From: a virus
Taxonomy: Duplodnaviria > Caudoviricetes
Virus record (IMG/VR): IMGVR_UViG_3300014204_000175
Span: 6,784-70,783 of that record
Direction: 5' to 3' (one strand)
DNA length: 64,000 nt
The translations under genes were made by a program, and so were the position numbers. Below are positions 36,347 to 54,330 of this stretch, one piece after another (within the stretch, counting starts at the first letter, position 1; each line of letters begins with the position of its first letter). The notes beneath the pieces were generated by a model, which was given only the letters and a program-made list of their open reading frames with translations, searched no databases and was not told the origin of the DNA.

Positions 36347-37282
36347 TTATGAGGCAACAGTATAGAAACAATCCTTTGATAATGCCGCCTTGCCTGAATA
36401 CATATAAGACTGCTCAAAATTCTTTATGATCGCTGCCGGCAATTCGCCATCCTTCTGAGATTTCTTGTTCAAAAGAACTGAGTTCATATACCCCAAAATG
36501 GCACGCCGAATACTCTCCGGTTCATCTTTAAGTTCTTTGAGGATAATAGCAATTTCACCCCAGGGCTTCTGTGCCAATAATGCCCGGCACAACTCAATCA
36601 CTTCGTGGTGAACGTTTGCATGAATTAAGGTTCTTGCTTCGTTTTCATCCTCGACATTTCTAACCAGATCCAAGGCAACCAGAATCTCTCTAGGAATACA
36701 GAAATCGTGTTCCTCTTGGAAGCTGTCAATAATGGCCTGGCGAATTGCCGGCGATATCCGAAACCCTTCCTTCTTGCAAATATATTTGATAAAATCCCCT
36801 GCCTGGGCATCCGTAAATGGTTTTACCTCATAGCATTTGGACCGGCTTTTTATTGTTGTTGGGACCTTATTCAAGGCTGTTGTGGCAAATACAAAATAAC
36901 AGTGGTCTGGCGGAGCCTCCAGTGTCTTTAGCAACGAATCACTTGCCTGGCCGGAAAGCCGATGGCATTCATCTATAATATAAATTTTATATTTGCCTCC
37001 CAGAGGAGAGAATTGCGCCGCTTCTTTAATCGCCCTGGCGTTATCAACCCCGGTCGCATCTGCGGCATCGATCTCACTAACATCAATATCGGAAATTCCC
37101 AACTGGGCAGCGATTAACCTGGCCAGCGTTGTTTTTCCACAACCTCTTGGCCCATAAAACAAGAATGTTCTGGTTCTATCCAAAACGTCCAATACCGATT
37201 TTTTCAAAGCCTCATTCCCAAACAACTCATCGAATGTTTTTGGCCGATATTTGAGATGAAGTTCCACCCGATCTGCTTTCAT
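36347..37282 (-). CDS. dnaX: DNA polymerase III gamma/tau-like clamp loader subunit
   Basis: KYRPKTFDEL.G, GPRGCGKTT, EIDAA, IIDECH and LLKTLEAPP. Confidence 0.92.
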   Translation of the reverse strand: MKADRVELHLKYRPKTFDELFGNEALKKSVLDVLDRTRTFLFYGPRGCGKTTLARLIAAQLGISDIDVSEIDAADATGVDNARAIKEAAQFSPLGGKYKIYIIDECHRLSGQASDSLLKTLEAPPDHCYFVFATTALNKVPTTIKSRSKCYEVKPFTDAQAGDFIKYICKKEGFRISPAIRQAIIDSFQEEHDFCIPREILVALDLVRNVEDENEARTLIHANVHHEVIELCRALLAQKPWGEIAIILKELKDEPESIRRAILGYMNSVLLNKKSQKDGELPAAIIKNFEQSYMYSGKAALSKDCFYTVAS

Positions 37283-40200
37283 TTAAAGCCTCCCATAGAT
37301 TGTATTTTATTTGCAAAATTCCTTATCCCCTCTTCAAACATCCTTTTGTTTTCTGCTGGATTTCTCAGAACCGATGACGGATGAACACACCACAAAACAT
37401 AAATGCCCTTGCTCTCAACCCACTCCAAGGTTCCACTAAGTTTTGTTATTCCTCCATCTTCCCCTTTAAAATATTTTAGCGCGGTATTTCCTAATCCTAA
37501 GCACAATCTGGCGCCTGTCATTTTTATCTCTTTGTCCAACCATGTAGAACAGGACTCAATATGATCTGCCTTTGGCGTCTTAACTGGCCCCGGAAAACAT
37601 TTGCAAACATTTGTGACATGAAACCACCGTCTCGTCAACGAGTATTTAAACAGTTCTGCCCACAACAGTTTGCCAGCCTTTCCATAAAATCCCTTCCCCT
37701 CAGCATCTTCGTCGAAGCCTGGGGCTTCCCCGACAATCATAACGTTATATATCCCAAAAGATGGCAGAACCGGCTGGCGAGCATGATCTCTCAAGGCACA
37801 TCCCTTGCAACACAATAGCTCCGGATCTCGCCAGTGCTTTTTGATTGCATAGCAATCTGGCAATCTTGACTCAATTGGATTCAATATTCCAGATATGTCA
37901 AACCCAAAATATTTGGCCAAATCTCCTTTTGGATTATTCCCATCTGCGCCAATCTCTTCAATCAATTTCCCCATCTTCCCAGATGGCTGCCTTTCTGCCA
38001 GACAAAAAAAACCATCCCCGGTTGGTGGTTTATAACGAGCAATATCATCTGCCAACTTTGGCCCAACTCCTTTCACTTCAATAAACGGGACATAGATATT
38101 GCCATCCTTGACTACCCATTTATGTGCGTCAGATATTCCAAGCCTTGGCAAAACAACCTTCAGCCCAATACGTCGGGCCTCCTTAACCAACTCTTCTTTT
38201 TTCCCGTCAGATCCATATGTCAAATTTGCACAAATAAATTCGGCTGGGAAATACAACTTCAAAAATGCGCACCAGTATGAAATCATGGCGTACTCGACGG
38301 AGTGAGACTTGTTGAAACTGTATCTTGCATGGTTCTGAAGCGCCTCCCAAAACTCTTTTGCCTCCGCCACGGACAACGTGCCTTCCTTTTGACAACCCTC
38401 AACGAACATTTGTTCGTATTGGGCAAACTGTTTGGCATCCCGCTTTTTTGCAACAATCTTCCTTATTTTATCCGCCACCGTGTACGGTAGCCCCGCAACG
38501 AGATTTATTACCTGCATAACCTGCTCTTGGTACACAATAATGCCAAACGTATCTTTCGTTATCCTCTCATAAATACGATGCTTCTTGACCCATTTGGACC
38601 CATGTTTCCGTTTGGTAAAATCTGCTGTCATTCCGCTATCTGCGGGACCAGGTCTAACAAGAGCAACAACAGCCGACATCATGCCAAAATCTTCAACCCC
38701 AATTTCCTTGACCAACTTGGTTGTAGCCCAAGTATTGAATTGAAAAACGCCTACTGTTTCCCCTCTCGATAACATTTCAAAAACCTGATTGTTATCAAGC
38801 GCTATCTTATCAAAAACAATGTCGTGACCATGGTTCTGTTTGATTAATCGTTTTGCTTCTCCCAACACAGATAACGTACTGAGCCCAAGGGCGTCAAGTT
38901 TCATCAATCCGACATACTCTGCATCGTCCTTGTGCCAATTTACAACTTCCTGCTCTGACCGTACCGCCAAATTGCCCCTGGTGCCTTGAGTCAAATCCTC
39001 TGCGGAAACGATAAGTGCCGCTGCGTGCTGAGAAGTGCCCCGAATCTGCCCTTCCAACCGGATGGCATAATCAACAGCTTTGGGATATTTTTCTGTGAAT
39101 CTCAGCCCCTCTGGGGTGTCCTTTGCTGCCTGTTCCACTGAGTTATTATCATTTTCCTCGTCGAATATCGCCTTGGCAAATTCATCGACATCCTTGTATG
39201 GGATATCAAAAACCCTGGAAACATCACGAATAACCGCCCTGCCTTTCATTTTCATGAAAGTGGAAACCGACGCGATATGATTTTTTCCATACAATTCTTC
39301 AAGATGTTGACGAACCAATGGCCGTTTTGCATCTTCAAAGTCCATGTCTATGTCCGGATAATCTATGCGATTCTCATCAATAAACCTTGAAAACAAAAGA
39401 TCATACTTGATGGGGTCAACCGCAGTAATGCCAATCAAATAGGCTATCAAACTGCCGCCAACGCTGCCTCTTCCTGGCCCAACAAGGATGTCATTTGATT
39501 TGCACCACAAGACAAGCTCATGCACCAAAAGGAAATATCTGACAAACTTCTTCATTTCAATCAGTGCAAACTCCTCGCAGAACCTGTCCCAATAGGACTG
39601 ATCCCAATTACCTTCCCCAAACAAATTCCGATATCCTTCAAGACACAGTGTCTTCAAAAACAGACTTTCATCTACCTCTTGGACACCATATATTTCTGGT
39701 AGCCAGATATCCTTCTTTTTTATCTCAAATCCGGAGCACTTTTCGGCAACCAACATTGTATTGCGGCAAGCTGTCAGATATTGAGACTTCGACAAAATGC
39801 CTTGTTCGACAAAGGCCTCCTTCATTTCTCGTTCTGATCTCAAAAAAACCGTATCGATACCAAACTTGAAACGATTCTCGTCGTTCCATTTGGCCTTTGT
39901 TTGAATAGCAAGAACTACTTGGTGAAGATCGCTATCGTGACCATTAACATAATGGCAATCGTTTGTTGCAACAAGTCGGATTCCAACATTTTGAGAAATA
40001 TCTACGCACATCCGATTAATCTGGGATTGACTATCCAAAACATGAGGCATCACCTCAAGATAAAAATCCTCTCCCATCTTGGAAGCCAATGCCATCAAAA
40101 AATCCATTCCTACTGGCGAACGCAATGGAGACTGAGTACAACCAGACAGAAAGACCAGTCCTTCATGATGACTCAAAATGGTTTCAAAATCATTCCTTGG

Positions 40201-40533
40201 CTTGCGATAAAATCCTTGCAAATTGGCCATCGTCAACATCTTGCATAGATTTTGAAACCCGGTTTCATTTTTCACTAGTGCCGTCATATGAAATCGGACA
40301 GAAGATTTCCGATCCTTCATATCCGGAACAACATATAATTCACAGCCAAATATCGGCACGATGCCAGCCTTTTTCGCTTCGGTCTGAAATGTTATCAGTC
40401 CATCGATGTTGGCGTGATTTGTAAGCGCCAAGTGGGTCTGGCCCAACTCCTTGGCACGTTTCAAATAATCCTTGGCTTTGCCCAACCCATCTAAAATACT
40501 GTATTCATTATGCGTGTGGAGGTGACAAAACAT
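37279..40533 (-). CDS. dnaE: DNA polymerase III alpha with C-terminal family-4 uracil-DNA glycosylase domain
   Basis: PHP HLHTHNEYSILDG, GRGSVGGSL, PDIDMDF, KLDALGL and YSFNKSH; then CKGC.L...MIVGEAPG..ED..G..F.GKAG...TNVCKC...HPS (about 37282-37830). Confidence 0.95.
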   Translation of the reverse strand: MFCHLHTHNEYSILDGLGKAKDYLKRAKELGQTHLALTNHANIDGLITFQTEAKKAGIVPIFGCELYVVPDMKDRKSSVRFHMTALVKNETGFQNLCKMLTMANLQGFYRKPRNDFETILSHHEGLVFLSGCTQSPLRSPVGMDFLMALASKMGEDFYLEVMPHVLDSQSQINRMCVDISQNVGIRLVATNDCHYVNGHDSDLHQVVLAIQTKAKWNDENRFKFGIDTVFLRSEREMKEAFVEQGILSKSQYLTACRNTMLVAEKCSGFEIKKKDIWLPEIYGVQEVDESLFLKTLCLEGYRNLFGEGNWDQSYWDRFCEEFALIEMKKFVRYFLLVHELVLWCKSNDILVGPGRGSVGGSLIAYLIGITAVDPIKYDLLFSRFIDENRIDYPDIDMDFEDAKRPLVRQHLEELYGKNHIASVSTFMKMKGRAVIRDVSRVFDIPYKDVDEFAKAIFDEENDNNSVEQAAKDTPEGLRFTEKYPKAVDYAIRLEGQIRGTSQHAAALIVSAEDLTQGTRGNLAVRSEQEVVNWHKDDAEYVGLMKLDALGLSTLSVLGEAKRLIKQNHGHDIVFDKIALDNNQVFEMLSRGETVGVFQFNTWATTKLVKEIGVEDFGMMSAVVALVRPGPADSGMTADFTKRKHGSKWVKKHRIYERITKDTFGIIVYQEQVMQVINLVAGLPYTVADKIRKIVAKKRDAKQFAQYEQMFVEGCQKEGTLSVAEAKEFWEALQNHARYSFNKSHSVEYAMISYWCAFLKLYFPAEFICANLTYGSDGKKEELVKEARRIGLKVVLPRLGISDAHKWVVKDGNIYVPFIEVKGVGPKLADDIARYKPPTGDGFFCLAERQPSGKMGKLIEEIGADGNNPKGDLAKYFGFDISGILNPIESRLPDCYAIKKHWRDPELLCCKGCALRDHARQPVLPSFGIYNVMIVGEAPGFDEDAEGKGFYGKAGKLLWAELFKYSLTRRWFHVTNVCKCFPGPVKTPKADHIESCSTWLDKEIKMTGARLCLGLGNTALKYFKGEDGGITKLSGTLEWVESKGIYVLWCVHPSSVLRNPAENKRMFEEGIRNFANKIQSMGGFK

Positions 40534-40536
40534 ACA

Positions 40537-41592
40537 TCAATCCTTTGTCGCAATAATCAAAGCGAGTATGCATTCAAACGTGGCGCTTTTCATCAATATG
40601 TATTTGTTGTCCTTCAAGTAAAACTGATTCCCCAGTGCCAACAATGCGGCAAAATGTGCCGGTTGAACCTTTAATGTTACATCTTCTGGAAATGACCATT
40701 TGGCGTCCTTGACGATCTTGTCTTTGAGTTCTCCGTATTGTTTGGCGCCAGAAACAATCATATTTCCCTTGGCGTCAAGAGAAAGTTCAACATATTCAGA
40801 GCCTTCTTGTGTGGCAAAAGACATGACGCTTGCCCGTTCGATGGATTCCAATAATCCTGACGGGAAAACATATTGTTTCTCGTCTGTCTCGTCGAAATTC
40901 AGAAAATTCTTAATGGCGTCCCTGGGAAAATCGGCATTCAATTTACGAACACTAAACTGAAGCCCCGATTTTGCCTTGAAATGAACCCAAGATTCGCCAA
41001 CTGAAAATTCCTCAAGGTCTACAAATTTGATCAGCTCTTTCACAGATCCAATGGGCAAAACCAAATCTCCTTTGAGGGATCTGAATTCAAGCGGATAAAA
41101 CCCCGCCTTCATCCGGTCGCTGGCCGCCAAGCCATCCCTCGCAATAGATACCCCGCAAAGTGGCGTCATAGCCGTATTGGTGGTTGCGAACCCGCTGACA
41201 ATGGAAAGCGCGGACACGAAGTCTTTTGGCAATTTGTGCCATTTGACATCACCTAGCGCCAGATTGTCGACGAGCGACAAAATGGAAGAACTGTCTGACG
41301 ACACCATCTTCAAAACGGTTTTGCCTCCAGACATTTGAACCTTTCCATCATCCAACAAAATCATCTTAATTTCATCAGAATTGATTCGGGACAATACCCG
41401 GAAAAACTCCTGCGCTTTCACCAAACATTTGATGCCTGACTTGAAAGGATAAGAAACAGAAATCTCGTCATTAAAGGTTTTTATCCATTCGTCGTCGAAC
41501 ATAAATGAATTCGCCCCTTCCAACAACGTGTTCTTGTCTTCAACGCCAGACATAACCTTCTTTAAAACTCCCATCAACTCAGCTCTATTCAT
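40537..41592 (-). CDS. dnaN: DNA polymerase III beta-like sliding clamp
   Basis: 351 aa, adjacent to dnaE; N-terminal KTFNDEISV and ASDRMK (ATDGxR-like) motif; three-domain size. Confidence 0.75.
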   Translation of the reverse strand: MNRAELMGVLKKVMSGVEDKNTLLEGANSFMFDDEWIKTFNDEISVSYPFKSGIKCLVKAQEFFRVLSRINSDEIKMILLDDGKVQMSGGKTVLKMVSSDSSSILSLVDNLALGDVKWHKLPKDFVSALSIVSGFATTNTAMTPLCGVSIARDGLAASDRMKAGFYPLEFRSLKGDLVLPIGSVKELIKFVDLEEFSVGESWVHFKAKSGLQFSVRKLNADFPRDAIKNFLNFDETDEKQYVFPSGLLESIERASVMSFATQEGSEYVELSLDAKGNMIVSGAKQYGELKDKIVKDAKWSFPEDVTLKVQPAHFAALLALGNQFYLKDNKYILMKSATFECILALIIATKD

Positions 41593-41611
41593 TTGCTCCT
41601 CCTTGTTTATA

Positions 41612-43066
41612 TTATACTACCTCTCCGAGAAATTTGTGCGAATAATCCAAATCCCAAGACCTGTATTCATAAACCACATCTTCGTTCTGGTCAACGCCAA
41701 CAGGATGCATAACCCCGGCAAAATAAATGAACGGACTCCGTGGGTGATACGGATTGTTCCATTTGTTGCGCATGGCATCTCCGAACGTAAAATACTTTCT
41801 GACCCGCTTTGCGTGCCAGCCACCGCAATTATACATCTCAACTGCCCGTACATTATGAGCCCACTCAGGAGCCCAATCCGCGTATGTAACTCTTCGTCGT
41901 ATTCCCTTATCAAAATCCTTCTTCATTTCATGAACAACATTTGTCAACTGCCGACGACTCCAGTTGCCGAATATCGGGTCGTTGGGCAATATGCCGCAAC
42001 AACAGCCTGTGTCATTAAACTCCTTGAAGTGAGGATCGCTACAAGCGAAAACCATCCCCAGTTTATGGGCGTAGTCGCGTACCTTTGCCGTCATATCAAA
42101 CTTGTAGTCCCGGCTACCACGCCTGCAAGCTTCAACCGACCGGCTCATGGCATTCCATTTATCCCCAAACTTAACGTCGCCCATCGCCTTGAACATATTA
42201 TGATACATGATCTTCTGGCGAGTGGTTGGAGCACTCTCAAGGAAAATGAATTCAAAACTGACAGCCTTTGCCCCAGCATCTGCAGACTTGTCAAGCAAAC
42301 GCTGCCAGCCGTTATTGTGGTCAGACAGCCCCGGCAAGAATGGCCTGAAGCGCACACTGACCGGATGGCCAGCCTGAGCATATGCCTTCATCGCTGCAAA
42401 ACGTTCCGTTGCGTTTGGAGCCGCAACATCAACAGCCGTTAAAAGGTCATCATCGGCTGATATGATGCTGAACGCAAACCAGAAATGCTCTGGCGTCTTG
42501 TGAAAGGCGTCCCGGTATTCCTTCAACATCATTGTCTTTGCGCCTTTTGTACCAATACGCACCGGCTGCTTAAACCGCTGGAAAATAGGGATGGCCTTCA
42601 GCAGCCAGCCACTATGTTTTTCTATCTCGTCAAGCGGATCGCCAAGCGCACCAAGCTGGACAGGGCAACCCTGATTCAAAAGCGGATACATCGCTTTGGC
42701 AACGCCGCCCAATTCCCGGTTCAAGAATTTCTCCAGCCCGGAAATCTTCCATTCAGAATACAGCGTTCCTTTTTCAAAAAGCTTGCGGATTTTGTCCGGA
42801 TTGCGGTCTGGCGCCCTCATCAAATTATTGGCAAAGCAGTATTGGCAACCATAAGAACAGCCGCTGTGTGAGTCTAAAGATATTGGCAGGGCGCAATCCA
42901 TTGCATCACTGGTGAATCTTACCCCATTGTAATCTTGGGGCATAGGCACACTTAGGATCTCCTCACGCCGCTCATCAGAAACGTACGGGAGGCAAACGCC
43001 ATCTTTGCATAAATCAGCCATCCTTGATGGACAGCCCTTACAAACAAGGTGAAGATTCTCTCTCAT
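41612..43066 (-). CDS. Radical SAM enzyme 1 (SPL-like)
   Basis: DCALPISLDSHSGCSYGCQYCF (CxxxCxxC), DP, TK and RFRP motifs, late GCCCG. Confidence 0.9.
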   Translation of the reverse strand: MRENLHLVCKGCPSRMADLCKDGVCLPYVSDERREEILSVPMPQDYNGVRFTSDAMDCALPISLDSHSGCSYGCQYCFANNLMRAPDRNPDKIRKLFEKGTLYSEWKISGLEKFLNRELGGVAKAMYPLLNQGCPVQLGALGDPLDEIEKHSGWLLKAIPIFQRFKQPVRIGTKGAKTMMLKEYRDAFHKTPEHFWFAFSIISADDDLLTAVDVAAPNATERFAAMKAYAQAGHPVSVRFRPFLPGLSDHNNGWQRLLDKSADAGAKAVSFEFIFLESAPTTRQKIMYHNMFKAMGDVKFGDKWNAMSRSVEACRRGSRDYKFDMTAKVRDYAHKLGMVFACSDPHFKEFNDTGCCCGILPNDPIFGNWSRRQLTNVVHEMKKDFDKGIRRRVTYADWAPEWAHNVRAVEMYNCGGWHAKRVRKYFTFGDAMRNKWNNPYHPRSPFIYFAGVMHPVGVDQNEDVVYEYRSWDLDYSHKFLGEVV

Positions 43067-43320
43067 TTTCCCGCCTTCCTGACCAATTCGGCCAGCGCCA
43101 CCGCATTCATATCCGGATGGGATTTGACGTGAATATTGTTCCGGGCCAACTTGGACAAGACGAGGTTGTAGTCGTCATCATTGTCAAAATAGAATATGAG
43201 AAATTTCCTCAGCCCATGATCCGTTTTACCGTTGATGCTCTCTGGGAAAAAGAACAGACCGTCCTTGCTTTTCAACTCCTTGTCCGTATCATCAATACGG
43301 GAGTAATCGCCCTTTGCCAT
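43063..43320 (-). CDS. Hypothetical protein
   Basis: 85 aa with AGGAGG RBS. Confidence 0.6.
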   Translation of the reverse strand: MAKGDYSRIDDTDKELKSKDGLFFFPESINGKTDHGLRKFLIFYFDNDDDYNLVLSKLARNNIHVKSHPDMNAVALAELVRKAGK

Positions 43321-43328
43321 ACAACCTC

Positions 43329-44075
43329 CTATTTGTAAGAATAAATATCGTTAACCTTAATTGGGTTGAGCTTTGTCTTGAAACGATAAAGTTCTTGGTT
43401 ATCCAAACATCCACCGTCGTTTACAAGCTTGTTGATCAATGGGTCAGTGTAAAACAGCAGCCGCATGTATTCACTCAGGTGCTGCCCCGGCTTGCAAAAG
43501 CAATACCTGAAATTGATGTACATATAATTTTCATCCCAGATATTGACACCATACACTTCGCCATTGTCGTCAGTTAGAATCTTGACGTTTTGCCCTGACT
43601 CCATGTATTTTATCATTGTCTCATCATCGACAATGACCCGTTCCTTTTCGCTTAACCATTCAACAAGAACCTCTGATAAATCGTCGTCTGGTTGAACCGG
43701 CCTGTATTGTAGCCGTAGGTCAGGATTGCGATTGACAAACTTGCGGGAGTTTTTTCTGAATGTTTGCCAGTCGCCGCCAGCAAGATCAAAAAACCGTTTC
43801 GGGTCATATATAAAATTGTAATCCAAAAATTGAAGAGCAAATTGAGTTCCCCCAAGCGTTCCCAACGTAGCCCAAACGCTGGCATTCCCCAAATACACCT
43901 CTCCGCCAGTAGTGTCTATCGGCGGCAACATAACTACATCTTCATCAAAGACATAGATTGCATCACCGTCCCAACAAACCTGCCAACCGGCCTTTTGAAA
44001 ATATTCCTCTGAGCACCAGAAATTCGGTTCAATCCCAAACATTTTCAGCGCTTCAAGGTAATCATTTGTTGCCAT
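43329..44075 (-). CDS. DUF2156 / MprF C-terminal-like GNAT-fold transferase
   Basis: DYNFIYD...DLAGGDWQTFRKNSRKF and VNDGGCLDNQELYRFKTKLNP match the DUF2156 pattern (Y.Y...L..L.G......R...N.F ... N...D.G..GL...K....P). Confidence 0.7.
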   Translation of the reverse strand: MATNDYLEALKMFGIEPNFWCSEEYFQKAGWQVCWDGDAIYVFDEDVVMLPPIDTTGGEVYLGNASVWATLGTLGGTQFALQFLDYNFIYDPKRFFDLAGGDWQTFRKNSRKFVNRNPDLRLQYRPVQPDDDLSEVLVEWLSEKERVIVDDETMIKYMESGQNVKILTDDNGEVYGVNIWDENYMYINFRYCFCKPGQHLSEYMRLLFYTDPLINKLVNDGGCLDNQELYRFKTKLNPIKVNDIYSYK

Positions 44076-44199
44076 CTAAATCCAATCCTTGCGTCTTTTC
44101 CGATTCTTTTTTTGCAAGATTTTTTACAACCTTGCCGCTTTTTATCCTATCAATCAGCTTCTTGGATATCTGCCCACTTTTACGACTTTTGCCCCCCAT
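44062..44199 (-). CDS. Small basic protein (45 aa)
   Basis: Not in the ORF track. MGGKSRKSGQISKKLIDRIKSGKVVK..., GGAGG RBS. Confidence 0.5.
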   Translation of the reverse strand: MGGKSRKSGQISKKLIDRIKSGKVVKNLAKKESEKTQGLDLDGNK

Positions 44200-44200
44200 T

Positions 44201-44911
44201 TCACCCTCCCACAACTCCCAACGATCCGAGTTCATCAAAAAGACACCATGACAAAATGCCTTTCATACCGCTTGTTTTGGCTTCAACAATAAAATAATTC
44301 AGCCCCGGCGCAAATGCAAATGAAAGCTCCTTGTCTTCAATAAACAGAGCCTCCAAATCCGATAAGCGCAACCCCATTGGCTCAAACGGTTCAACATTAT
44401 CTGTTTCAAAAAATAGCCCAGAACGATCTTTTTCTATTTCTATTATAGTCCCAGAAAAGATATCTCTCTGAATTATTTTAACACCATTGTCGTAATGAAT
44501 TTCCACATGACTCAAATCATCTTGCAGAAAAGCAAGAATAGCCTTATTCAAGGAAAAATGAGAAGCGGCCTTTTTCCGACTGAGTTTGTAATACAATTTT
44601 GATATGGTTTCAAAATCCAGTTGCTTGTTCGTTCCACATTTCTTTTTCTTGATATAGCCGTCCGCAGCTGTCTCAAAGATCAATGCCCCATCTTTTGTGT
44701 AGAAGTTTGACGACTCATAGTCGTTGACATCAAAAACGATACGCTCCTTGAATTCAGCACTGGTCTTTTTCAAGACAAAGCTCAACAATATCGTCCTGTC
44801 AAAGTTGATGATGAACACTTCCCTTTCAGAACAAAGGATGGTGTTTTTCATCTTCCCCGACTGATCCAGTGCCGCAGCATATTTAAATATGTCTTCCCTA
44901 TCTTTTTCCAC
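44201..44911 (-). CDS. Hypothetical protein (beta-rich, possibly clamp-like fold)
   Basis: 236 aa, no recognised motif. Confidence 0.6.
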   Translation of the reverse strand: MEKDREDIFKYAAALDQSGKMKNTILCSEREVFIINFDRTILLSFVLKKTSAEFKERIVFDVNDYESSNFYTKDGALIFETAADGYIKKKKCGTNKQLDFETISKLYYKLSRKKAASHFSLNKAILAFLQDDLSHVEIHYDNGVKIIQRDIFSGTIIEIEKDRSGLFFETDNVEPFEPMGLRLSDLEALFIEDKELSFAFAPGLNYFIVEAKTSGMKGILSWCLFDELGSLGVVGG

Positions 44912-45143
44912 TTAATCCCTCCTCAGTTTTCTTTTTCCAACCACCAAACCGCTCGTTGTAGCATTCTCTGCAAAGACCACGACCTTCTGTGTCATTTGGG
45001 TCATTGCTCACAGCATAAAATTCAGAAAGTTCCTTGTTCATCCCGCATGATCCTGGGCCTTGACAACGCTTTGTTGCTATACCATCTTCAAACAAAAGGA
45101 AATCCAATGGCGCTGGTTGAACCATCCTTCTTGGCGCAATCAT
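44898..45143 (-). CDS. Small Cys-containing hypothetical protein
   Basis: 81 aa; CxxxxxC...LCxxC. Confidence 0.55.
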   Translation of the reverse strand: MIAPRRMVQPAPLDFLLFEDGIATKRCQGPGSCGMNKELSEFYAVSNDPNDTEGRGLCRECYNERFGGWKKKTEEGLSGKR

Positions 45144-46567
45144 ATCACCCTCCTTAACATTTCCTCCCGGAAATCATGATCCTTGTCGAATGCCCAAACC
45201 AATCCATCCTGATCCTGACCAACGGGCAAAAGACCTGCCGCATGGTCAAGGGAAAAAGAAGTGTCTCCACAAATGTTCCACAACTGCTTCACTTCATTCT
45301 TAAATACAGATGAAAGGAAGCCGTTTTTCCCTTCAACGCGACTTGCGAAGTCCCCCCAACTTGTCTTCTGTTTGCCCCGGCCAACGATGAAACGAATGGC
45401 GCTTGTTGTATTTCCAAGGCAGAACCGATCCAGCCCAAATAGGTCGCTAACAGAACAGCAAACAGGATCATCATTGAATGGTACATTCCCTGCATCAAAT
45501 GTGGAACACTGAAGACCAGCCTTCCGAAAATAATCCATATATTTACTCAATAGTAAAGATCCAAGCCACTGTGCCCGCGACATGATCTCATACATACGCT
45601 CAAAGTCGTGGCCCAAGCGCGCAAAATTATTTTTGATCCCTGTGCCCGCAGCCGAATAACTATATGTGTCAAACGTCATGTGCGTTATTCCAGCATCCAA
45701 TATTTGCCGGATATAGTCATCAGTCATGCCCTTATCGTCATTCAGAAAAACCATGAATGGTTCTATCCGGGCAACAACCCGCACCCCGGCATCGCAGAGA
45801 TTCTTGGCGCCCCGGATGCGTTCCTTAAACTTTGGTGCTCCCGGCTCAATGCCTTTCAGAAAAACCTCGTTTGATGAAATCATTGTGATGTGGACTGCCG
45901 ACCCAGCTTTGTTTGACGCAAATGCCTTGACGTATTCATCGTCTCCCACCAGATCAGACTTGGTATTGACCATCATTGGATATTCATTCTCTGCCAAATA
46001 ATCCAGCATGTCAAGGGCAATGCGGTGCTTTGTTTCTATCGGTCTGACGAAATCCTCAAAACGGATGCCAAGCCTCATTGGCATTTCCATAGAAATTGCT
46101 TTGGCGACATCATTTAAACCATCTTTCTTTGATCCCCGATTTTTGAAAAGGATGTCGAGTTCCTTGCGGAAAAAGGCTGGACTGCAAACCCTCATCCCCA
46201 TGCCTTTTGTATTGTCAAAAAAAGAACTGTAAAGTGACGCTCTGGCATAATCAGCAAAACAATACGAGCAATGGTACGGGCAGAGCTTTGAATCATATAT
46301 GTCCAAATTTAGAGACATTGGGCAAGCTTGAGAGCGCAAACTGACTTCGATGAACGATTGCATTTCTTCCAGATTCAAATTGCGCTCTTTTTTCGCCATT
46401 TCTCCCTTCTCAATATTGAACTGAAAATAATTTGATTTACGACCCTTTTCCTTGACCAAACTTTGTTTATCCTTTTGGGCAAGGAATACGCCCATCCTCG
46501 GCACCAACTTTGCTACTTGTTGTCTTAATTCCCAATAATCGGCCACTATCACGCTCCTATATTCCAA
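45140..46567 (-). CDS. Radical SAM enzyme 2 (SPL-like)
   Basis: ACPMSLNLDIYDSKLCPYHCSYCF, NTKS, IEPGAP, RIEPF and late VCCS. Exact start uncertain. Confidence 0.9.
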   Translation of the reverse strand: MEYRSVIVADYWELRQQVAKLVPRMGVFLAQKDKQSLVKEKGRKSNYFQFNIEKGEMAKKERNLNLEEMQSFIEVSLRSQACPMSLNLDIYDSKLCPYHCSYCFADYARASLYSSFFDNTKGMGMRVCSPAFFRKELDILFKNRGSKKDGLNDVAKAISMEMPMRLGIRFEDFVRPIETKHRIALDMLDYLAENEYPMMVNTKSDLVGDDEYVKAFASNKAGSAVHITMISSNEVFLKGIEPGAPKFKERIRGAKNLCDAGVRVVARIEPFMVFLNDDKGMTDDYIRQILDAGITHMTFDTYSYSAAGTGIKNNFARLGHDFERMYEIMSRAQWLGSLLLSKYMDYFRKAGLQCSTFDAGNVPFNDDPVCCSVSDLFGLDRFCLGNTTSAIRFIVGRGKQKTSWGDFASRVEGKNGFLSSVFKNEVKQLWNICGDTSFSLDHAAGLLPVGQDQDGLVWAFDKDHDFREEMLRRVI

Positions 46568-46596
46568 AACAGTATTGGTTCTTTAAACTCAATATT

Positions 46597-46625
46597 ACTA
46601 TACCCCGTTTTTCTAAAATCTCTGA
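46597..46625 (-). promoter_or_regulatory. Putative internal promoter (GATTTTAGAAAAACGGGG-TATAGT)
   Basis: Resembles the other intergenic motifs in this window. Confidence 0.4.
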
Positions 46626-46640
46626 CAAATCTACAAGTAA

Positions 46641-47645
46641 TTATTCCTGCGGCATTGGATAGTGCTCATCCAACTCATCAATATCTTCCTGCGACAAAAT
46701 CAACTTTGCTGCCTCCATATTGATTCTTAGGTGGTCAAGATCATTTGTCCTTGGTATCGGGACAACGCCTGGCATCCGTAAAATCCAAGCCAAAGCGACT
46801 TGCGATGTCGTGGCATCATGTCGTTTTGCTATTTCAGTTAAAACTGGCTTATTCATTTTTTTAAAATCCTGCCCAAGCGGACTGTATGCAATAACTATAA
46901 TACCACGGGCCTGACAATATGGAAGCAAACACGATTCGATTCTCCTGTCGAGCAAAGAATAACTAACCTGCACGGACTGTATAACATCCCCAGAATAATC
47001 GGATAAAAAACGCTGCATACTCTCAATCATATCGACAGAACAATTTCCCAACCCAAAAGAAGAAATTTTTCCAGACCTCCGCAGATCAACCAAAATCTTT
47101 CCCAATGTTTCATTAGAGTACGATTCATTGGGGAAATGTATTTGTAAATGAGGAGAAATGCCAAGCTTCCCGATTGAACGATCAACAGCCGACCTGAAGG
47201 CCAATTGACTCATGTGATCCCGTCTAATTTTCGTAGATACAACAACAGGATTTTCCAATTTGCAAATTGTTTTCCCCAGCTCTGTCTCAACTCTGCCGTA
47301 ACCATAACCCTCAGCTGTATCAATCAATGACACACCAAGATCCGCTGCCATTTCAATTATTCGATAATCATACTTCCACCCATAGGTTCCCAACCCTACT
47401 GAAAAACTAGGAAGTGGCCGTGGACGACAGCCAATATCAGATAAATCCAAAAGGCTTTTGACCCGGCAAATTGAATAATCAATCATTCTCTGCCGATCTT
47501 TTTTCAAGCAATCATTTACTGTAGTGTAGCGATAGTTCAAGCCCCACATAGATCCGTGAAGGGTATCTGCGGTAAATGGTCCTGACAACACAGACTTACC
47601 TTCTTTCAATGCTTCCAATTCTTTCAGAACTTCTTCCCAGATCAT
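46641..47645 (-). CDS. Aldo/keto reductase
   Basis: VGLGT, IDTAEGYG.G..E..LG, STK, GKI..FGL.N, Q..YSLLDR, IAYSPLG and SQVALAW...PIP. Confidence 0.92.
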   Translation of the reverse strand: MIWEEVLKELEALKEGKSVLSGPFTADTLHGSMWGLNYRYTTVNDCLKKDRQRMIDYSICRVKSLLDLSDIGCRPRPLPSFSVGLGTYGWKYDYRIIEMAADLGVSLIDTAEGYGYGRVETELGKTICKLENPVVVSTKIRRDHMSQLAFRSAVDRSIGKLGISPHLQIHFPNESYSNETLGKILVDLRRSGKISSFGLGNCSVDMIESMQRFLSDYSGDVIQSVQVSYSLLDRRIESCLLPYCQARGIIVIAYSPLGQDFKKMNKPVLTEIAKRHDATTSQVALAWILRMPGVVPIPRTNDLDHLRINMEAAKLILSQEDIDELDEHYPMPQE

Positions 47646-48367
47646 AGATCAAGAAATCCTTCCAGCTTCACAAAAGCAGAATCTTTGTATGGCTTGATCC
47701 CTCTACACAATGACAATTTTGATGGGGGGACATATTCAATTTCTTTCCCATCTGCAAATCCATACAAGACAATTGCTGAATTGCTAAATGAAGAAACGGC
47801 CAAAACTCTCTTCCCTCCTAAAACCGATCTCATCTCCTTGTCCAACAGCTCATAATACTCGTGTTCTGTTTTTATTCCATAATGCTTGATATTTCCAAAC
47901 TTGAACCCAAAACAAGCGCTATCCGCAATCATAAGAAACCTGGTTGTTGGCGCAATGCGTTCCAAGGGGCCTATGTGTTGGTGCAATTTCCGAAGCGTAA
48001 AAGCATCAAAGTCAAGAAAAAAGACATCTGATTCAGGAGGTTCCCAAAGATTTATATCATTTGCTTGGATGTTTTGATTCTGGAAATTCTTTTTCAAAAT
48101 ATCAAAACAAGCAGTATCAGATTCGTTCATTATAAGATTGCAATCAGGCCAATGATTGAGGAAAACTGCCCCCCAAAACCCTGATCTTGATATCCCATCA
48201 ATCACCCGCAACCCATTCTTGATAGGAATTTTGGCAATGACAGCATCAAGATTTCTGCATGTTTCTGCACAATCCCTCCAAGAAACTACTTGGTGCGGCG
48301 TCCAGCCAACCTTCCTGCCTCCGCCATCGGGAATATTCAACCTATAGCTGCCAATAGTATAAATCAT
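47642..48367 (-). CDS. Putative SAM-dependent methyltransferase-like Rossmann protein
   Basis: VIDGISRSG (motif I-like), IMNESD, ANDI and VFFLDFD (motif IV-like, lacking DPPY). Confidence 0.45.
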   Translation of the reverse strand: MIYTIGSYRLNIPDGGGRKVGWTPHQVVSWRDCAETCRNLDAVIAKIPIKNGLRVIDGISRSGFWGAVFLNHWPDCNLIMNESDTACFDILKKNFQNQNIQANDINLWEPPESDVFFLDFDAFTLRKLHQHIGPLERIAPTTRFLMIADSACFGFKFGNIKHYGIKTEHEYYELLDKEMRSVLGGKRVLAVSSFSNSAIVLYGFADGKEIEYVPPSKLSLCRGIKPYKDSAFVKLEGFLDL

Positions 48368-49419
48368 AATTCAACGTCCCCCATTGTATAAAAATCATTC
48401 GACTTTCCCAACATAATCAACCTTGCCATTTCTTTGTCTTGTTCTGCACCAATCCCCTCCCAGGAACTGGCCAATATTTCCTCCTGGCTCATGAGCCCAT
48501 TCTGTAAACAGATCTTCCATTGATGGGTATTGAAAGTAAATGCTCCAGGAACATCAACTCCACAACATGTATTTGTTCTCGATCGCCAACCTTTCGGGGT
48601 ATTAACAAAATCAGGGCAACCCAAAATTATCCCCTCTTCGTCTGCAATTCGGCACAAATCTCTTTGAATTGGTCTCCAGAACTCATCCTGGTTGTAATGC
48701 CAAATCTTCTCAATGTCCATTCCGGCATCATGCAAACGGCGCATTGTGTAGGCGTTAACGTGTAAATTATATGTATTATAGGACTTAAATCCAAATGATT
48801 TGACCCGACGGATGGTATTGCGAAATTGAGCAAGTGTATGATAACCAGGGATGAATGGTTCTCCCCTTACACCAACAGCCACACCCTTACGCATCCATTT
48901 AGACGCTATCTCAAGCCGGTCTGAGACACAAGGAGTCCGCCTCCGCTCAAATATTTCCCAATCACTTTCCATTCCTGGAGTAATTTCTACCAAAAAAGTC
49001 AAAAGATTTTTGGCCTTAATAAAAAGAGATTCGTCACGATCGGCATTAGGAATATAACGAGAACAAATGATAAATTGTTGTTTGAAATGTATGAATGTAT
49101 GAATGTATGATCTTGTTATCTCCAATTCCATCTCTATTGGTTGATATGGATCGGATTTCCGGCCAACCCAAATAGCTTTTTTTAATTTTAGCGCAACAGA
49201 CAATGGAGACTTGCCATTGTTTTTGCTTGCCGATATGAATTTCTGTCTTACTTTTTCAGGATCGGCAATTCTTTGTTCCTCTCCCCATATTCGATTAAGA
49301 TTGCGCCCCATACAATGCAAACAATCGGCTTCACAATTCCAATAGGCTTCCAAAGTCAAAGGAAGGGGACAATTTAAATGGGTATTCCGGATGCAAAAGG
49401 GGTTTTTGTATTCTATCAT
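48364..49419 (-). CDS. Radical SAM enzyme 3 (SPL-like)
   Basis: NCPLPLTLEAYWNCEADCLHC, GRKSDPYQP, RGEPFIP and late TCCG. Confidence 0.88.
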   Translation of the reverse strand: MIEYKNPFCIRNTHLNCPLPLTLEAYWNCEADCLHCMGRNLNRIWGEEQRIADPEKVRQKFISASKNNGKSPLSVALKLKKAIWVGRKSDPYQPIEMELEITRSYIHTFIHFKQQFIICSRYIPNADRDESLFIKAKNLLTFLVEITPGMESDWEIFERRRTPCVSDRLEIASKWMRKGVAVGVRGEPFIPGYHTLAQFRNTIRRVKSFGFKSYNTYNLHVNAYTMRRLHDAGMDIEKIWHYNQDEFWRPIQRDLCRIADEEGIILGCPDFVNTPKGWRSRTNTCCGVDVPGAFTFNTHQWKICLQNGLMSQEEILASSWEGIGAEQDKEMARLIMLGKSNDFYTMGDVEL

Positions 49420-49435
49420 TCTGGTATCATCTATA

Positions 49436-49471
49436 TTTTTGAGGGAGTGTTTTTATGCACTCCCTCAAAAA
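49436..49471. terminator. Rho-independent terminator, bidirectional-type
   Basis: TTTTT-GAGGGAGTG-loop-CACTCCCTC-AAAAA. Confidence 0.8.
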
Positions 49472-49495
49472 TTTGATCTGGTTGCAAAAAAACAT

Positions 49496-50041
49496 TTAAG
49501 CAGGAAGGATGTTATTGCCATCAACCCTTACTTTCCCGAATCTGATGGCGACGGGCATCATAACACTAATCAGATGCTTTGTCTGCTTTGCATTATCCTT
49601 TCCTCCCGATGCCATATAATCATTGTTTGTTGCAATGACAAGCTCATCAATGGTACAAGCCCCCTTCAACTGATTAATAGAATCGCAGAAAGACTCGACT
49701 CTGGTTTTTCCTCTCAGGGGTTTCTCTTTCTTGACCTTCGGTTCTTTGGGTGCTTTTGGTTCCTTTTTTGCTTTCTCTGCCTTGGGAGGCTTTTCTGCCA
49801 CTTCCTCGGCAATCGTAATTGCCTGATAATAAACCGCTGCCGCTTCCGGACCGGTCCAATTCCCCTCATCATCATCCGGGATGGCCTGGACATTTTCCAA
49901 GAAGGATTTGATCAAGTCGTCTTTGGACTTGCCAACCGTGATGATTTTGTTTTCCAGTTTCCCGCTGTCATTGAGTTCCTTGATGGCCTTTGCCAACTCT
50001 TTGAATTTGATCTTTTCTACTTCGATTGTTTTGACTGGCAT
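49496..50041 (-). CDS. Hypothetical Lys/Glu/Pro-rich protein
   Basis: Start moved to MPVKTIEV (AAGGAG RBS); KAPKEPK linker suggests DNA binding. Confidence 0.6.
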   Translation of the reverse strand: MPVKTIEVEKIKFKELAKAIKELNDSGKLENKIITVGKSKDDLIKSFLENVQAIPDDDEGNWTGPEAAAVYYQAITIAEEVAEKPPKAEKAKKEPKAPKEPKVKKEKPLRGKTRVESFCDSINQLKGACTIDELVIATNNDYMASGGKDNAKQTKHLISVMMPVAIRFGKVRVDGNNILPA

Positions 50042-50076
50042 TGTTTCGCTCTCCTTTTTGTATTTTTGCAATATGG

Positions 50077-50256
50077 TTATTTGTTCTTGGCCACAGTTAC
50101 CGACACGCGGACTGCCTGGGCATCCGCCTTCAAATCCTGCATTGCATTCCTTACCCTGGTACCAGCAGATTTATTCCCTGCATCAAACTTCTCGGCATCC
50201 TTGAGCGCTTCCTCCAATTTCTCGCTCATTTCACTTACCAAACTTGCCACGCTCAT
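50077..50256 (-). CDS. Histone H1-like protein, Hc1 family (59 aa)
   Basis: Not in the ORF track. DAEKFDAGNKSAGTRVRNAMQDLKADAQAVR matches the KF..GNK.AGTR.R Hc1 motif; AAGGAG RBS. Confidence 0.8.
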   Translation of the reverse strand: MSVASLVSEMSEKLEEALKDAEKFDAGNKSAGTRVRNAMQDLKADAQAVRVSVTVAKNK

Positions 50257-50297
50257 TTTCAGTCTCCTTTTTAATGTTATTTTCTTTTCTTGAACTT

Positions 50298-50327
50298 ATT
50301 ATACTCTAATTTTCAAAAAATCATAAA
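50298..50327 (-). promoter_or_regulatory. Putative promoter TTTATG-18-TATAAT
   Basis: Intergenic, upstream of the Hc1 gene. Confidence 0.55.
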
Positions 50328-50343
50328 TTTATTTTGATAAGTT

Positions 50344-51873
50344 TTAATTTATTTTGACGTACTCGTCGTCCAGGAACGGCTGACCCAATGCAAATGACTG
50401 TAATACCATCGCTTCTCCAGAAAAAGAAAACTCTTCGTGACGGTGAGCAATAACACTAATCCTTGAAACACCCTGTTCCTTTTCTTCTGGTTTTTGATTA
50501 ATCGCCAGCAATAAATCCACGTGGGCACCCTTTCTAATGTCCTCTGCAGTATCTTCCTGCTCCAAATTCTTTTTGCTAATAGATTTTCTATTGCTTTGAA
50601 GAACGGTAGCCACTAAACAATGGCGCTTGGATGCCTGACCCTTTCCCCTCTTCCAAACATAATCAGAAACTCCACGTTCAGAAAGTCCACCAACGCCTCC
50701 TCCAGGATTAGAAATATCAAAATAATCGTAGGCAATAACATCTGGAATAAACCCACCCTGAGACTCCAACTCATCAAGATCCCTTTCAGCGTCATCAAAA
50801 GATGCCGAAAAAGCTGGATATGCCATCACCCGCAAATTGTTGCCGTACAGCATCCTGAAATCTTTTACCTTCCTCGCGACAGTTCTGGAATCAAATTCCT
50901 TTACTTGCCGCTGAACCGACCACCAGGTGGCAACCTCATATTGACCGTTTTTTGTTCCTCTGCAAGCCGTACATGGTTTGTAACCATCGAACTTTTTGAA
51001 TTCTGGGGTGGGAGCTGCCGGCGCTTTAATCGCGACATCACAGACCCGTCCTTGTCGTTTGCACGTCCCATCCTGATTCCGTTGACAATCAAATATGGGG
51101 AACTTGTGATCGCCGGTTTTTGATGCCAATGCAGAAAGTCGTTTGTATAATCGTTTTGATACGGCATTGCGGTTCATTTCAAATGAAAAATAAGCCACCT
51201 TCAAACCATTCATCAATGCGTGAATTGCCAATTCCTGTAACCACCAAGACTTTCCCCTCTTAAGGGGAGCCATAAATGCAACCAACCAATCGCGTTCCAG
51301 ATCACCAACCATTTCTCCAAGTGCTCCGGAAAAACGGAAAAGCTTATTCGACTCGTCGTCTTGAAAAACCGTATCAACAGCAGATACCTCAAGCGGATTG
51401 AACCAATTGCTAATATCCTTTGATATTCTATTAAAATTCCTAATCTCCGCTTCGGCCTGGTCAACCCGGCCCTTGGCAACTTCTCCGCTTATTTTCTCAG
51501 CCAACAAAACCAGCGCCCTTTGCCGGAAATAATCACGCGATTGGTCAACAAGTAACGCATAGTTGGCCTTTTTCTCTGCTTCATATTGATCCGACAAATT
51601 GGACAGAAAAACCTTAATCAATTCCGCATCAGCTGAATTCAAGCCATCTTTTTCAACCGCGAATATATTTTGGATTTCTTTGCCTGGAGCTTTTTTGTAG
51701 AGTTTGAAATAATCAGCACACCAGAGAAAAACTTGACGTGAAAAATCACCCTTGAAATATTGCTTCTTTGCCATTTTTGTTAACTGGCTACAATAATTGT
51801 CGTCTGTTATGAGTCCTGTTATAATCCTTTTTTCTATTTCCGCATTGATGATATTCCTACGAATCGAAACCAA
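50344..51873 (-). CDS. Replicative DNA helicase, DnaB-like
   Basis: Walker A APLKRGKS, FSFEM, DVIAYDY, QSNR and AEDIRK...D motifs. Confidence 0.88.
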   Translation of the reverse strand: MVSIRRNIINAEIEKRIITGLITDDNYCSQLTKMAKKQYFKGDFSRQVFLWCADYFKLYKKAPGKEIQNIFAVEKDGLNSADAELIKVFLSNLSDQYEAEKKANYALLVDQSRDYFRQRALVLLAEKISGEVAKGRVDQAEAEIRNFNRISKDISNWFNPLEVSAVDTVFQDDESNKLFRFSGALGEMVGDLERDWLVAFMAPLKRGKSWWLQELAIHALMNGLKVAYFSFEMNRNAVSKRLYKRLSALASKTGDHKFPIFDCQRNQDGTCKRQGRVCDVAIKAPAAPTPEFKKFDGYKPCTACRGTKNGQYEVATWWSVQRQVKEFDSRTVARKVKDFRMLYGNNLRVMAYPAFSASFDDAERDLDELESQGGFIPDVIAYDYFDISNPGGGVGGLSERGVSDYVWKRGKGQASKRHCLVATVLQSNRKSISKKNLEQEDTAEDIRKGAHVDLLLAINQKPEEKEQGVSRISVIAHRHEEFSFSGEAMVLQSFALGQPFLDDEYVKIN

Positions 51874-54310: not shown

Positions 54311-54330
54311 AGCTATTTTATCGCCTCCAT

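Follow-up and report, generated by a model that had tools for sequence, protein, structure and literature searches.

A free-standing, virus-specific DUF2156-type transferase in a phage replication block, with a putative role in DNA hypermodification

A transferase gene inside a phage replication block

We analyzed a 64,000-nucleotide stretch of phage DNA (the window), comprising positions 6,784 to 70,783 of the IMG/VR virus contig IMGVR_UViG_3300014204_000175, a record of 70,783 bases with an estimated completeness of 77%. Our subject is the gene for P0001, a protein of 248 amino acids (aa), together with the island of genes around it (Table 1). All sizeable genes of the window run on the minus strand, and the island lies inside a block of phage replication genes. 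The genes of this block encode a superfamily 2 (SF2) helicase, a primase, an HNH protein, a replication initiator and DnaB, then the island and a beta-type sliding clamp, and further a DnaE-type polymerase with a uracil-DNA glycosylase (UDG) domain, a clamp loader, RecA-like proteins and a 5′-3′ exonuclease. Metagenome contigs from a landfill (2018) and from groundwater (2022) hold the same genotype, with zero differences over the parts compared. An earlier note, written from the DNA letters alone, had described P0001 as a soluble DUF2156/MprF-like transferase flanked by radical S-adenosylmethionine (radical-SAM) genes and had suggested that it may be the entry enzyme that attaches an amino acid to a DNA base or to a sugar. 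We assign P0001, as a free-standing form specific to viruses, to the DUF2156/MprF-C/Fem superfamily, whose proteins combine two GCN5-related N-acetyltransferase (GNAT) domains, and we find that the genes with which it travels point toward DNA.

P0001 has a double-GNAT fold with a basic helix between its halves

A single Pfam family, PF09924 (LPG_synthase_C), matched P0001 (E 2.7e-4, 20.6 bits), with residues 82–180 aligned to the middle of the profile (positions 96–197). The DUF2156 likeness claimed by the earlier note was thus recovered by profile search, although at a score below the curated cut-off of 27.5 bits. Within the family, 21 of 45 members matched PF09924 at E ≤0.01, the best of them at E 1.3e-6, and these members had hits to no Pfam family besides it. 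When the family profile was compared with the sequences of PDB entries, 2hqy, a free-standing Bacteroides DUF2156 protein, was alone in matching (E 0.001), and the matching stretch was a helix at residues 101–116. Because the homology to PF09924 is remote, P0001 is filed as a distant, separate DUF2156 subfamily and not as a canonical member.

At the level of structure the relationship is much clearer. In the AlphaFold2 model of P0001 (predicted local distance difference test, pLDDT, 94.2; predicted TM-score 0.90), a first GNAT half (GNAT I, approximately residues 1–95) is followed by a basic alpha(+) helix (residues 101–116, GDWQTFRKNSRKFVNR) and a second half (GNAT II, approximately residues 120–248). 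VIA-align matched this model to 2hqy with a Z score of 20.8 and a root-mean-square deviation of 3.0, aligning 244 of the 248 residues, and then to L-PGS (4v36) and MprF (6lv0), both at Z 14.9, to FemX (6snr, Z 12.1), to the aminoacyl-tRNA (aa-tRNA) peptide synthase Sbb17 (Z 11.8) and to FemA (Z 10.7). Foldseek ranked the matches in the same order (E 5e-10 to 1e-8). As modeled, the DUF2156/MprF-C/FemX double-GNAT fold of P0001 is unambiguous.

DUF2156 proteins consist of two GNAT halves, one on the acceptor side and one on the transferase side, split by a positively charged helix that binds the aa-tRNA (PMC7334510). In the P0001 model, helix 101–116 sits exactly between the two halves, where it is a candidate for the tRNA-binding basic patch that the earlier note had named as a point to check. 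In the alignment of the transferase family (A1), the invariant positions comprise R107, K108 and N109 in this helix, N188 and R190 in beta4, N219, D220 and G221 in beta5 and its loop, and K233; K112 of the helix is conserved at ≥90%, and the net charge of the helix has a family median of +6 (45 members). According to the GNAT topology, read from secondary structure, the active-site cleft would open at the beta4/beta5 invariants. On account of the fold and the basic helix, aa-tRNA-dependent aminoacyl transfer is the most likely chemistry of P0001, and one that we consider very probable.

The other chemistry to be weighed is that of an acyl-CoA-dependent tandem GNAT, in which P0001 would be an N-acetyl- or N-acyltransferase making no use of tRNA. 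Tandem GNATs of this type (MshD, VipF and glucosamine N-acetyltransferase) do occur in the fold lists, at Z 9–10.6, and the under-threshold Pfam match also speaks for it, but even the best acyl-CoA tandem GNAT reaches only Z 10.6, whereas the top matches, at Z 12–21, are all aa-tRNA-dependent enzymes or DUF2156 proteins. Acyl-CoA GNATs carry a pyrophosphate-binding motif, Q/R-x-x-G-x-G/A, after beta4. P0001 has no such motif there, the family consensus in this region being CxPxPFLSEYMRxLFY (A1), and it does have the conserved basic inter-domain helix, all of which makes use of acyl-CoA highly improbable.

P0001 is not an MprF. It has no N-terminal multi-pass flippase domain, and, in agreement with the earlier note, it is soluble and free of membrane domains (maximum 19-residue Kyte-Doolittle hydropathy 0.87, with no hydrophobic segment). 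The MprF synthase domain (4v36, 6lv0, 4v34) and 2hqy share with P0001 the double GNAT and the basic alpha(+) helix, and 2hqy is likewise soluble and free-standing. What sets P0001 apart from its DUF2156 relatives is the missing flippase, a shorter chain (248 aa versus ~300), a reduced GNAT I, a virus-only distribution and a replication context.

The family appears confined to viruses seen in metagenomes

Searching all proteins of a representative library for the transferase, with no length limit, yielded 294 clusters at E ≤0.001. Lengths ranged from 151 to 307 aa in the best 150 of these 294 clusters, and the search for longer, fused relatives found none, a negative that carries little weight. 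Relatives are encoded by 104 IMG/VR contigs. Among 50,697 GenBank phage records the family had 0 matches, and DNA and tblastn searches of the same records with the module, the transferase, the 475-aa radical-SAM enzyme and the clamp-fold protein described below gave no match either. In a collection holding one genome for each of 185,579 prokaryote species, the single match was a viral contig binned into a Melioribacteraceae metagenome-assembled genome (MAG). As far as could be seen, the family is therefore virus-only and known only from metagenomes. Our search of a literature library turned up no published description of it, and none joining DUF2156, phage and radical SAM; related queries led only to papers on Mom and on the thymidine pathways.

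The transferase is the constant element of a conserved module

To place P0001 in its genomic context we called ORFs (open reading frames) in 83 loci and labeled them by BLAST and profiles. Linkage was counted over 47 clusters (90% identity), each with ≥6 kb upstream; variable-slot and accessory genes were counted over 46 representative loci; and a micro-gene described below and tRNA genes were counted over 53 non-redundant loci. The genes stand in a near-fixed order: DnaB, a ~200-aa Lys-rich protein, a radical-SAM enzyme of ~350 aa, a variable slot, a radical-SAM enzyme of ~470 aa, a protein of the 236-aa type, a small ORF, the transferase, the beta clamp, the polymerase and the clamp loader. 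In most relatives the beta clamp directly follows the transferase and forms the downstream border of the module.

The window departs from this order by three lineage-specific ORFs. A third radical-SAM paralogue, found only in the nearest relatives, and the 85-aa ORF paired with it lie downstream of the transferase, the 85-aa ORF being the one between; upstream, the 45-aa, 236-aa and 81-aa ORFs separate the transferase from the 475-aa radical-SAM enzyme. Radical-SAM genes do therefore lie on both sides of the transferase, as the earlier note had said, but they stand one remove away and are not adjacent to it. For the 81-aa and 85-aa ORFs, a RiPP-like reading (RiPP, a peptide made on the ribosome and modified after translation) was dropped: both occur in the nearest relatives only and hence are not core. 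A scan for promoters and terminators over positions 40400–50400 found sites no more numerous than in shuffled sequences.

Table 1. Genes of the island and its borders (positions in the window)
Feature	Positions	Strand	Remarks
Beta-type sliding clamp, 351 aa	40537..41592	-	phrog_947, E 6e-24
Third radical-SAM paralogue, 484 aa	41612..43066	-	Only in nearest relatives (lineage-specific)
85-aa ORF, paired with third radical-SAM paralogue	43063..43320	-	Lineage-specific
DUF2156-type double-GNAT transferase P0001, 248 aa	43329..44075	-	ORF with ATG start
Unannotated micro-gene P0244, 45 aa	44062..44199	-	In the 125-nt 'gap' upstream of the transferase
Two-domain sliding-clamp-fold protein (PCNA / 9-1-1 / gp45), 236 aa	44201..44911	-	AlphaFold2 pLDDT 88.4
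81-aa Cys-rich ORF	44898..45143	-	N-terminus contains LDFLLF; lineage-specific
Core radical-SAM enzyme, 475 aa	45140..46567	-	CP...CxxxCxxC...CC; Pfam Radical_SAM, E 1.9e-6
Aldo-keto reductase, 334 aa	46641..47645	-	Variable slot; Pfam Aldo_ket_red, E 1.2e-41
Class I methyltransferase-fold protein, 241 aa	47642..48367	-	Variable slot; C-terminus EGFLDL; weak NCBIfam Tam, E 0.0019
Second radical-SAM enzyme, 351 aa	48364..49419	-	phrog_13321; NCBIfam PA0069 family
Lys-rich protein, 191 aa	49496..50071	-	Between DnaB and module; in 29/46 loci

Upstream of the transferase, both the 236-aa-type protein and the 470-aa radical-SAM enzyme were present in 45 of the 47 clusters. In the reverse test, wherever the 470-aa radical-SAM enzyme had an orthologue (69 loci), the transferase and the 236-aa-type protein were both there as well; starting from the 236-aa-type protein, we found the transferase in 39 of 39 loci and the radical-SAM enzyme in 38 of 38. 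In the exceptions among the clusters, L040 and L053, the transferase lies between DnaB and the clamp but is accompanied by neither the radical-SAM enzyme nor the 236-aa-type protein. The L053 record, which carries direct terminal repeats and has a completeness rating of 100%, gave no match to either profile. In L040, the slot between DnaB and the transferase (4710–5852, plus strand) is occupied by a TET-associated glycosyltransferase (TAGT; PF20691, E 5e-40), a member of a DNA-base-modifying family. A search of five records for Tet_JBP (PF12851) gave no match, and neither did the search control, so that this negative is uninformative. Because the radical-SAM enzyme and the clamp-fold protein never occur without the transferase while the transferase at times occurs without both, the asymmetry fits an upstream step and is consistent with the 'entry enzyme' role proposed in the earlier note.

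This context also bears on the nature of the acceptor. The closest characterized family, the MprF synthase domain, acts on phosphatidylglycerol, and P0001 might by analogy aminoacylate lipids as MprF does, remodeling the membrane of the infected host. P0001 has, however, no membrane or amphipathic anchor, and its best structural match is of the soluble 2hqy type and not MprF; the gene always lies between replication genes and is linked to a clamp-fold protein and DNA-type radical-SAM enzymes; and the family is virus-only, even the one match among cellular genomes being viral. A lipid acceptor is accordingly unlikely, and we give membrane remodeling almost no chance of being the function of P0001.

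Neighboring enzymes are related to those that sculpt modified thymidine in phage M6

The core radical-SAM enzyme belongs with the NCBIfam families Rv2578c and PA0069, which resemble spore photoproduct lyase (SPL) or 'DNA repair photolyase'. The 475-aa and 351-aa enzymes are paralogues (98.5% by hhalign between the alignment of the 475-aa family, A3, and that of the 351-aa family, A4), and in both families a Cys-Pro stands ahead of CxxxCxxC and a Cys-Cys follows late in the chain; neither family profile gave anything meaningful against PDB sequences. Between them lies the variable slot, which, depending on the locus, holds a fold-II pyridoxal phosphate (PLP) enzyme of ~278 aa, a methyltransferase-fold protein and an aldo-keto reductase (as in this window), an FAD oxidase-like protein and an aldo-keto reductase, or a methyltransferase-fold protein and a PLP enzyme. 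The methyltransferase-fold protein, present in 12 of 46 loci, has tRNA m6A37 and Trm1-type methyltransferases as structural matches (TM-score 0.6–0.7). The aldo-keto reductase, which the earlier note had cast as one of the processing enzymes, is not core: it occupies this swappable slot in 8 of the 46 loci, always beside the methyltransferase-fold or the FAD oxidase-like protein.

In Pseudomonas phage M6, gp52 decarboxylates C-alpha-glycinyl-thymidine in DNA, and the adjacent gp53, an SPL-like radical-SAM enzyme of 480 aa, isomerizes the glycine-thymidine conjugate and likewise acts on DNA (PMC8989533). The PLP enzyme of the nearest relative of our phage (L001) is 37% identical to gp52 over the full length (E 8e-50), and tblastn found gp52 homologues in 35 loci, with up to 47% identity; it found none in this window. 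Compared with gp53, the two radical-SAM profiles scored 96% (A4, E 5e-9) and 84% (A3) by hhalign, a remote homology. In sister loci the PLP enzyme and a radical-SAM enzyme of ~470 aa form a pair with the same order and sizes as gp52-gp53. The module thus resembles M6 in its gp52 homologues in sister loci, its remote gp53 homologues and its finishing enzymes, which are swappable as they are between M6 and PaMx11. It differs in having two or three radical-SAM paralogues where M6 has one, and, in this window, a methyltransferase-fold protein and an aldo-keto reductase with no gp52 homologue.

The remainder of the M6 pathway to 5-NedU includes the dUMP hydroxymethylase gp58, a homologue of ThyA, the 5-hydroxymethyl-deoxyuridine (5-hmdU) DNA kinase gp54 and the amino acid:DNA transferase gp51, of the aGPT-Pplase type (PMC8989533). 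No tblastn match to gp51, gp54 or gp58 was found in the window or in any locus searched. The ThyA family was found neither in this record (77% complete, so that absence from the whole phage is unproven) nor in a 94%-complete relative (G001); ThyX is present in this record and absent from two relatives searched. With gp52 and gp53 homologues present and the starter enzymes not found, the loci hold the sculpting half of a known DNA pathway without its starting half. In place of the starter enzymes stand, constantly, the transferase, the clamp-fold protein and the small peptide.

The relationship to these pathways can also be read in the opposite order, with the transferase acting last, as a cap: it would aminoacylate an amine or hydroxyl already built onto the base by the radical-SAM and tailoring enzymes. 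The GNAT step is indeed last in known thymidine pathways (PMC8989533), and the PaMx11 GNAT gp48 acetylates 5-aminomethyl-dU much as FemX and Sbb17 acylate a free amine. For FemX and Sbb17/Sba18, characterized structural relatives of P0001, the site of acylation is an amine on a scaffold built beforehand, and a carboxyl-linked acyl group makes a better terminal amide or ester than a substrate for later decarboxylation. FemX/FemABX and Sbb17/Sba18 resemble P0001 in being soluble double-GNAT proteins, and the known ones transfer a tRNA-borne amino acid to an amine on a pre-made acceptor; they match P0001 at the level of the fold alone (Z 11–12, ~10% identity), and their acceptors are a peptidoglycan precursor and streptothrisamine. 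A capping enzyme, however, should not outlive the makers of its substrate, and so the transferase-only loci count against this order: the transferase occurs without any radical-SAM enzyme in 2 of 47 clusters, one of them the 100%-complete genome, whereas the radical-SAM enzyme never occurs without the transferase. Moreover, the finishing genes differ between loci while the transferase is constant. We consider late capping unlikely, if well worth keeping in mind.

A clamp-fold protein, a micro-gene and possible docking tails

The 236-aa protein encoded upstream of the transferase gave zero sequence matches in Pfam, PHROG or the PDB, and its family profile found nothing meaningful among PDB sequences. 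By structure, its best 39 matches are all clamps (Z 10–15; Foldseek match to PCNA, E 2e-8), among them PCNA, 9-1-1, T4 gp45, beta-clamp domains and herpesvirus processivity factors. Since the phage also encodes an ordinary beta clamp, the 236-aa protein is an extra clamp-fold protein. The invariant residues of its family (K90, H135, E137, Q148, D185 and C223) are unusually strict for a clamp.

Immediately before the transferase we found a micro-gene, P0244, whose start lies 2 nt past the stop of the 236-aa gene and whose end overlaps the transferase start by 14 nt. Its 45-aa product begins MGGKSRKSGQISKKLIDRIKSG and ends QGLDLDGNK (also written MGGKSRKSGQISKKLI...GLDLDGNK). Of the 53 non-redundant loci, 41 have this micro-gene directly ahead of the transferase. 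Conservation of its alignment is lowest at third codon positions (0.50, versus 0.73 and 0.81), serine codons alternate between AGY and TCN, and a Shine-Dalgarno sequence, GGAGG, lies upstream; judged by these sequence features, the micro-gene is protein-coding. Its N-terminus is basic and almost invariant, MGGKSRK(S/T)GG(V/I)SKKLI, and its C-terminus is variable, ending in short hydrophobic-acidic motifs such as GLDL, PLFD, LLDE and GLGF. These endings recall the peptides at the C-termini of polymerases and of T4 gp33/gp55 that bind clamps, a likeness that we take as no more than a lead.

A similar tail, G[LF][LFGW] within the last 8 residues and usually after K/R, ends several proteins of the module. 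It is found in 9 of 36 homologues of the 351-aa radical-SAM enzyme, 4 of 11 short radical-SAM paralogues and 3 of 9 methyltransferase-fold proteins, compared with 10 of 437 other ORFs (several of the ten inside the module) and 0 replication proteins. The enrichment has an odds ratio of 17 (p 2e-10), a statistic that is indicative only, the motif having been picked after the data were seen. The enzymes with such tails are the methyltransferase-fold protein of the window and proteins of L009, L010, L012, L026, L039, L045, L055, L003, L024, L028, L046 and other loci. The pattern suggests that pathway enzymes may dock on a clamp through their tails, and that the peptide may be an adaptor for the transferase, which has no tail.

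The peptide could have a quite different part to play, that of the acceptor itself. In this alternative, P0001 would aminoacylate a protein or peptide (the 45-aa peptide, the clamp-fold protein or a nucleoid protein) in the manner of the Fem transferases, L/F-transferase or ATE1, or of the scaffold peptides that serve PEARL enzymes in assembling products derived from amino acids. The fold is common to ATE1 and the Fem transferases, the gene for the peptide is translationally coupled to that of the transferase, the first ~16 residues of the peptide (Lys-, Ser- and Gly-rich) are more conserved than the enzymes themselves, and an acidic transferase would be paired with a basic peptide. Yet 12 of 53 loci, among them those with a lone transferase, do not have the peptide; the neighboring genes are homologous to enzymes that act on DNA-borne amino acids; and the radical-SAM enzymes are SPL-like, with no NCBIfam or Pfam match to peptide-modifying radical-SAM families. 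The C-terminal motif of the peptide, moreover, recurs on enzymes of the module, which fits a docking tail better than a substrate. On balance a protein or peptide acceptor is quite unlikely.

A proposed pathway for aminoacylation of phage DNA

Taken together, the neighboring genes and their homology to gp52 and gp53, a partner with a clamp fold, the relative that bears TAGT and the place of the module inside a replisome operon make DNA hypermodification the most likely pathway, and we hold this assignment to be probable. The gp52/gp53 homology, the PCNA-fold protein and the relative with TAGT tie the neighborhood to DNA hypermodification by evidence that was not available to the earlier note.

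Within such a pathway, P0001 would deliver the amino acid. In the scheme that we propose, it would transfer an amino acid from a host aa-tRNA to a nucleophile in the phage's own DNA, either a base itself or some group that a base already carries; helix 101–116 would hold the tRNA, and catalysis would take place in the beta4/beta5 cleft of GNAT II. The machinery would be held on DNA by the 236-aa protein with its PCNA fold, with the 45-aa peptide as adaptor, and the group once attached would be remodeled by the two SPL-like radical-SAM enzymes. Finishing would fall to a swappable cassette, consisting here of the methyltransferase-fold protein and the aldo-keto reductase, and in sister loci of the gp52-like PLP decarboxylase or of the FAD oxidase and an aldo-keto reductase. 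As the constant element of the module and the sole one able to stand alone, the transferase fits the entry step, and Mom offers a precedent for modification fed by tRNA. That P0001 is the amino-acid-delivering step of an undescribed, post-replicative DNA hypermodification pathway is, in our view, an evenly balanced proposition, in which we infer the donor, the DNA acceptor, the order of steps, the tethering to the clamp and the identity of the amino acid and base.

Mom of phage Mu transfers glycine from Gly-tRNA to adenine (N6) in double-stranded DNA (PMC13219725), and the earlier note was correct in stating that it uses glycyl-tRNA (PMC13219725; bioRxiv 10.1101/2023.03.24.534169). Both Mom and P0001 are phage-encoded proteins of the GNAT superfamily, and the Mom modification is post-replicative, with a charged tRNA as donor. 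Mom, however, is a single GNAT domain with an insertion of its own (catalytic R111, S124) and works alone, whereas P0001 is a DUF2156-type double GNAT within a multi-enzyme module. General sequence and fold searches with P0001 returned no match to Mom, no comparison having been aimed at the Mom sequence.

Several observations weigh against the scheme proposed here. Because the window has no gp52-like PLP enzyme, the link to DNA rests on sister loci and on remote radical-SAM homology. P0001 itself falls below the curated Pfam cut-off. It is acidic (pI 4.5, with a family median of 5.6), which is unexpected for an enzyme that binds both tRNA and DNA, unless its partners provide the contact with DNA. 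Acyl transfer joins the amino acid through its carboxyl group and by itself would leave no free alpha-amino acid for a decarboxylase of the gp52 type. The near-invariant peptide encoded just before the transferase could be the real acceptor. Finally, a tRNA gene lies near the module in only 3 of 53 loci (Leu, Gln and Gly).

To our knowledge, the known phage pathways to amino-acid-derived thymidines all start from pre-replicative 5-hydroxymethyl-dU and proceed through a DNA kinase and a pyrophosphorylase-type transferase, and Mom, a lone single-domain GNAT, is the only tRNA-fed DNA modification on record. A bolder form of our proposal is that P0001 represents a second class of tRNA-dependent DNA-modifying enzyme, evolved independently of the first. 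It would load the amino acid directly onto an unmodified base of replicated phage DNA while working on a dedicated PCNA-like clamp, where it and the other enzymes of the pathway would dock by short tails at their C-termini, the 45-aa peptide being its adaptor, and the radical-SAM enzymes would forge the final linkage, with no need for a hydroxymethylase or kinase. This version is speculative, and we regard it as somewhat doubtful.

Should P0001 act on DNA, hypermodification of DNA would have a second way in, and nucleic acids would join lipids, sterols and antibiotics as targets of DUF2156 chemistry; the module would then also provide a concrete set of ~5 genes for expression and assay. Modifications of this kind matter for restriction evasion, for native-DNA sequencing of metagenomes and as tools for modified DNA.

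Other genes and features of the window

The 191-aa protein between DnaB and the module has a Lys/Pro/Glu-rich, histone-H1-like linker. Elsewhere in the window, a second Fem-type protein is encoded at 10351–11394 (minus strand; Acetyltransf_6 and FemAB, E 6e-7 and 3e-6). Its gene sits in a nucleotide-sugar cluster with two epimerase/dehydratases of the short-chain dehydrogenase/reductase type, a DegT aminotransferase, a hexapeptide acyltransferase and a WbmS-like deacetylase. Recent paralogy between this FemAB-like protein and P0001 was considered and rejected (hhalign probability 0.1%). The ThyX gene (12677–13339, minus strand) lies in the middle of the sugar cluster; in another locus, L015, ThyX directly follows the DUF2156 gene.

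A dedicated tRNA beside the module was rejected as a clue to the amino acid, the few loci with a nearby tRNA gene carrying three different ones. An element at 57379–57439 (minus strand) resembles the 3′ fragment of a tRNA, with a T-arm, the 3′ strand of the acceptor stem and CCA. As a tRNA-like carrier it was rejected: ARAGORN predicted no tRNA in the window, Rfam gave nothing, and the z-score of its fold was -0.27, no better than for shuffled sequences.

The HNH endonuclease gene (53615–54367, minus strand), which lies between the primase and the replication initiator, had counterparts in 0 related loci by BLAST and, being absent from them, is probably a mobile insertion. The DnaE-type polymerase (37279–40533, minus strand) has PHP, alpha and finger domains followed by a C-terminal domain of the UDG superfamily (E 1.7e-26); in relatives, UDG is fused to PolA or the polymerases are split.

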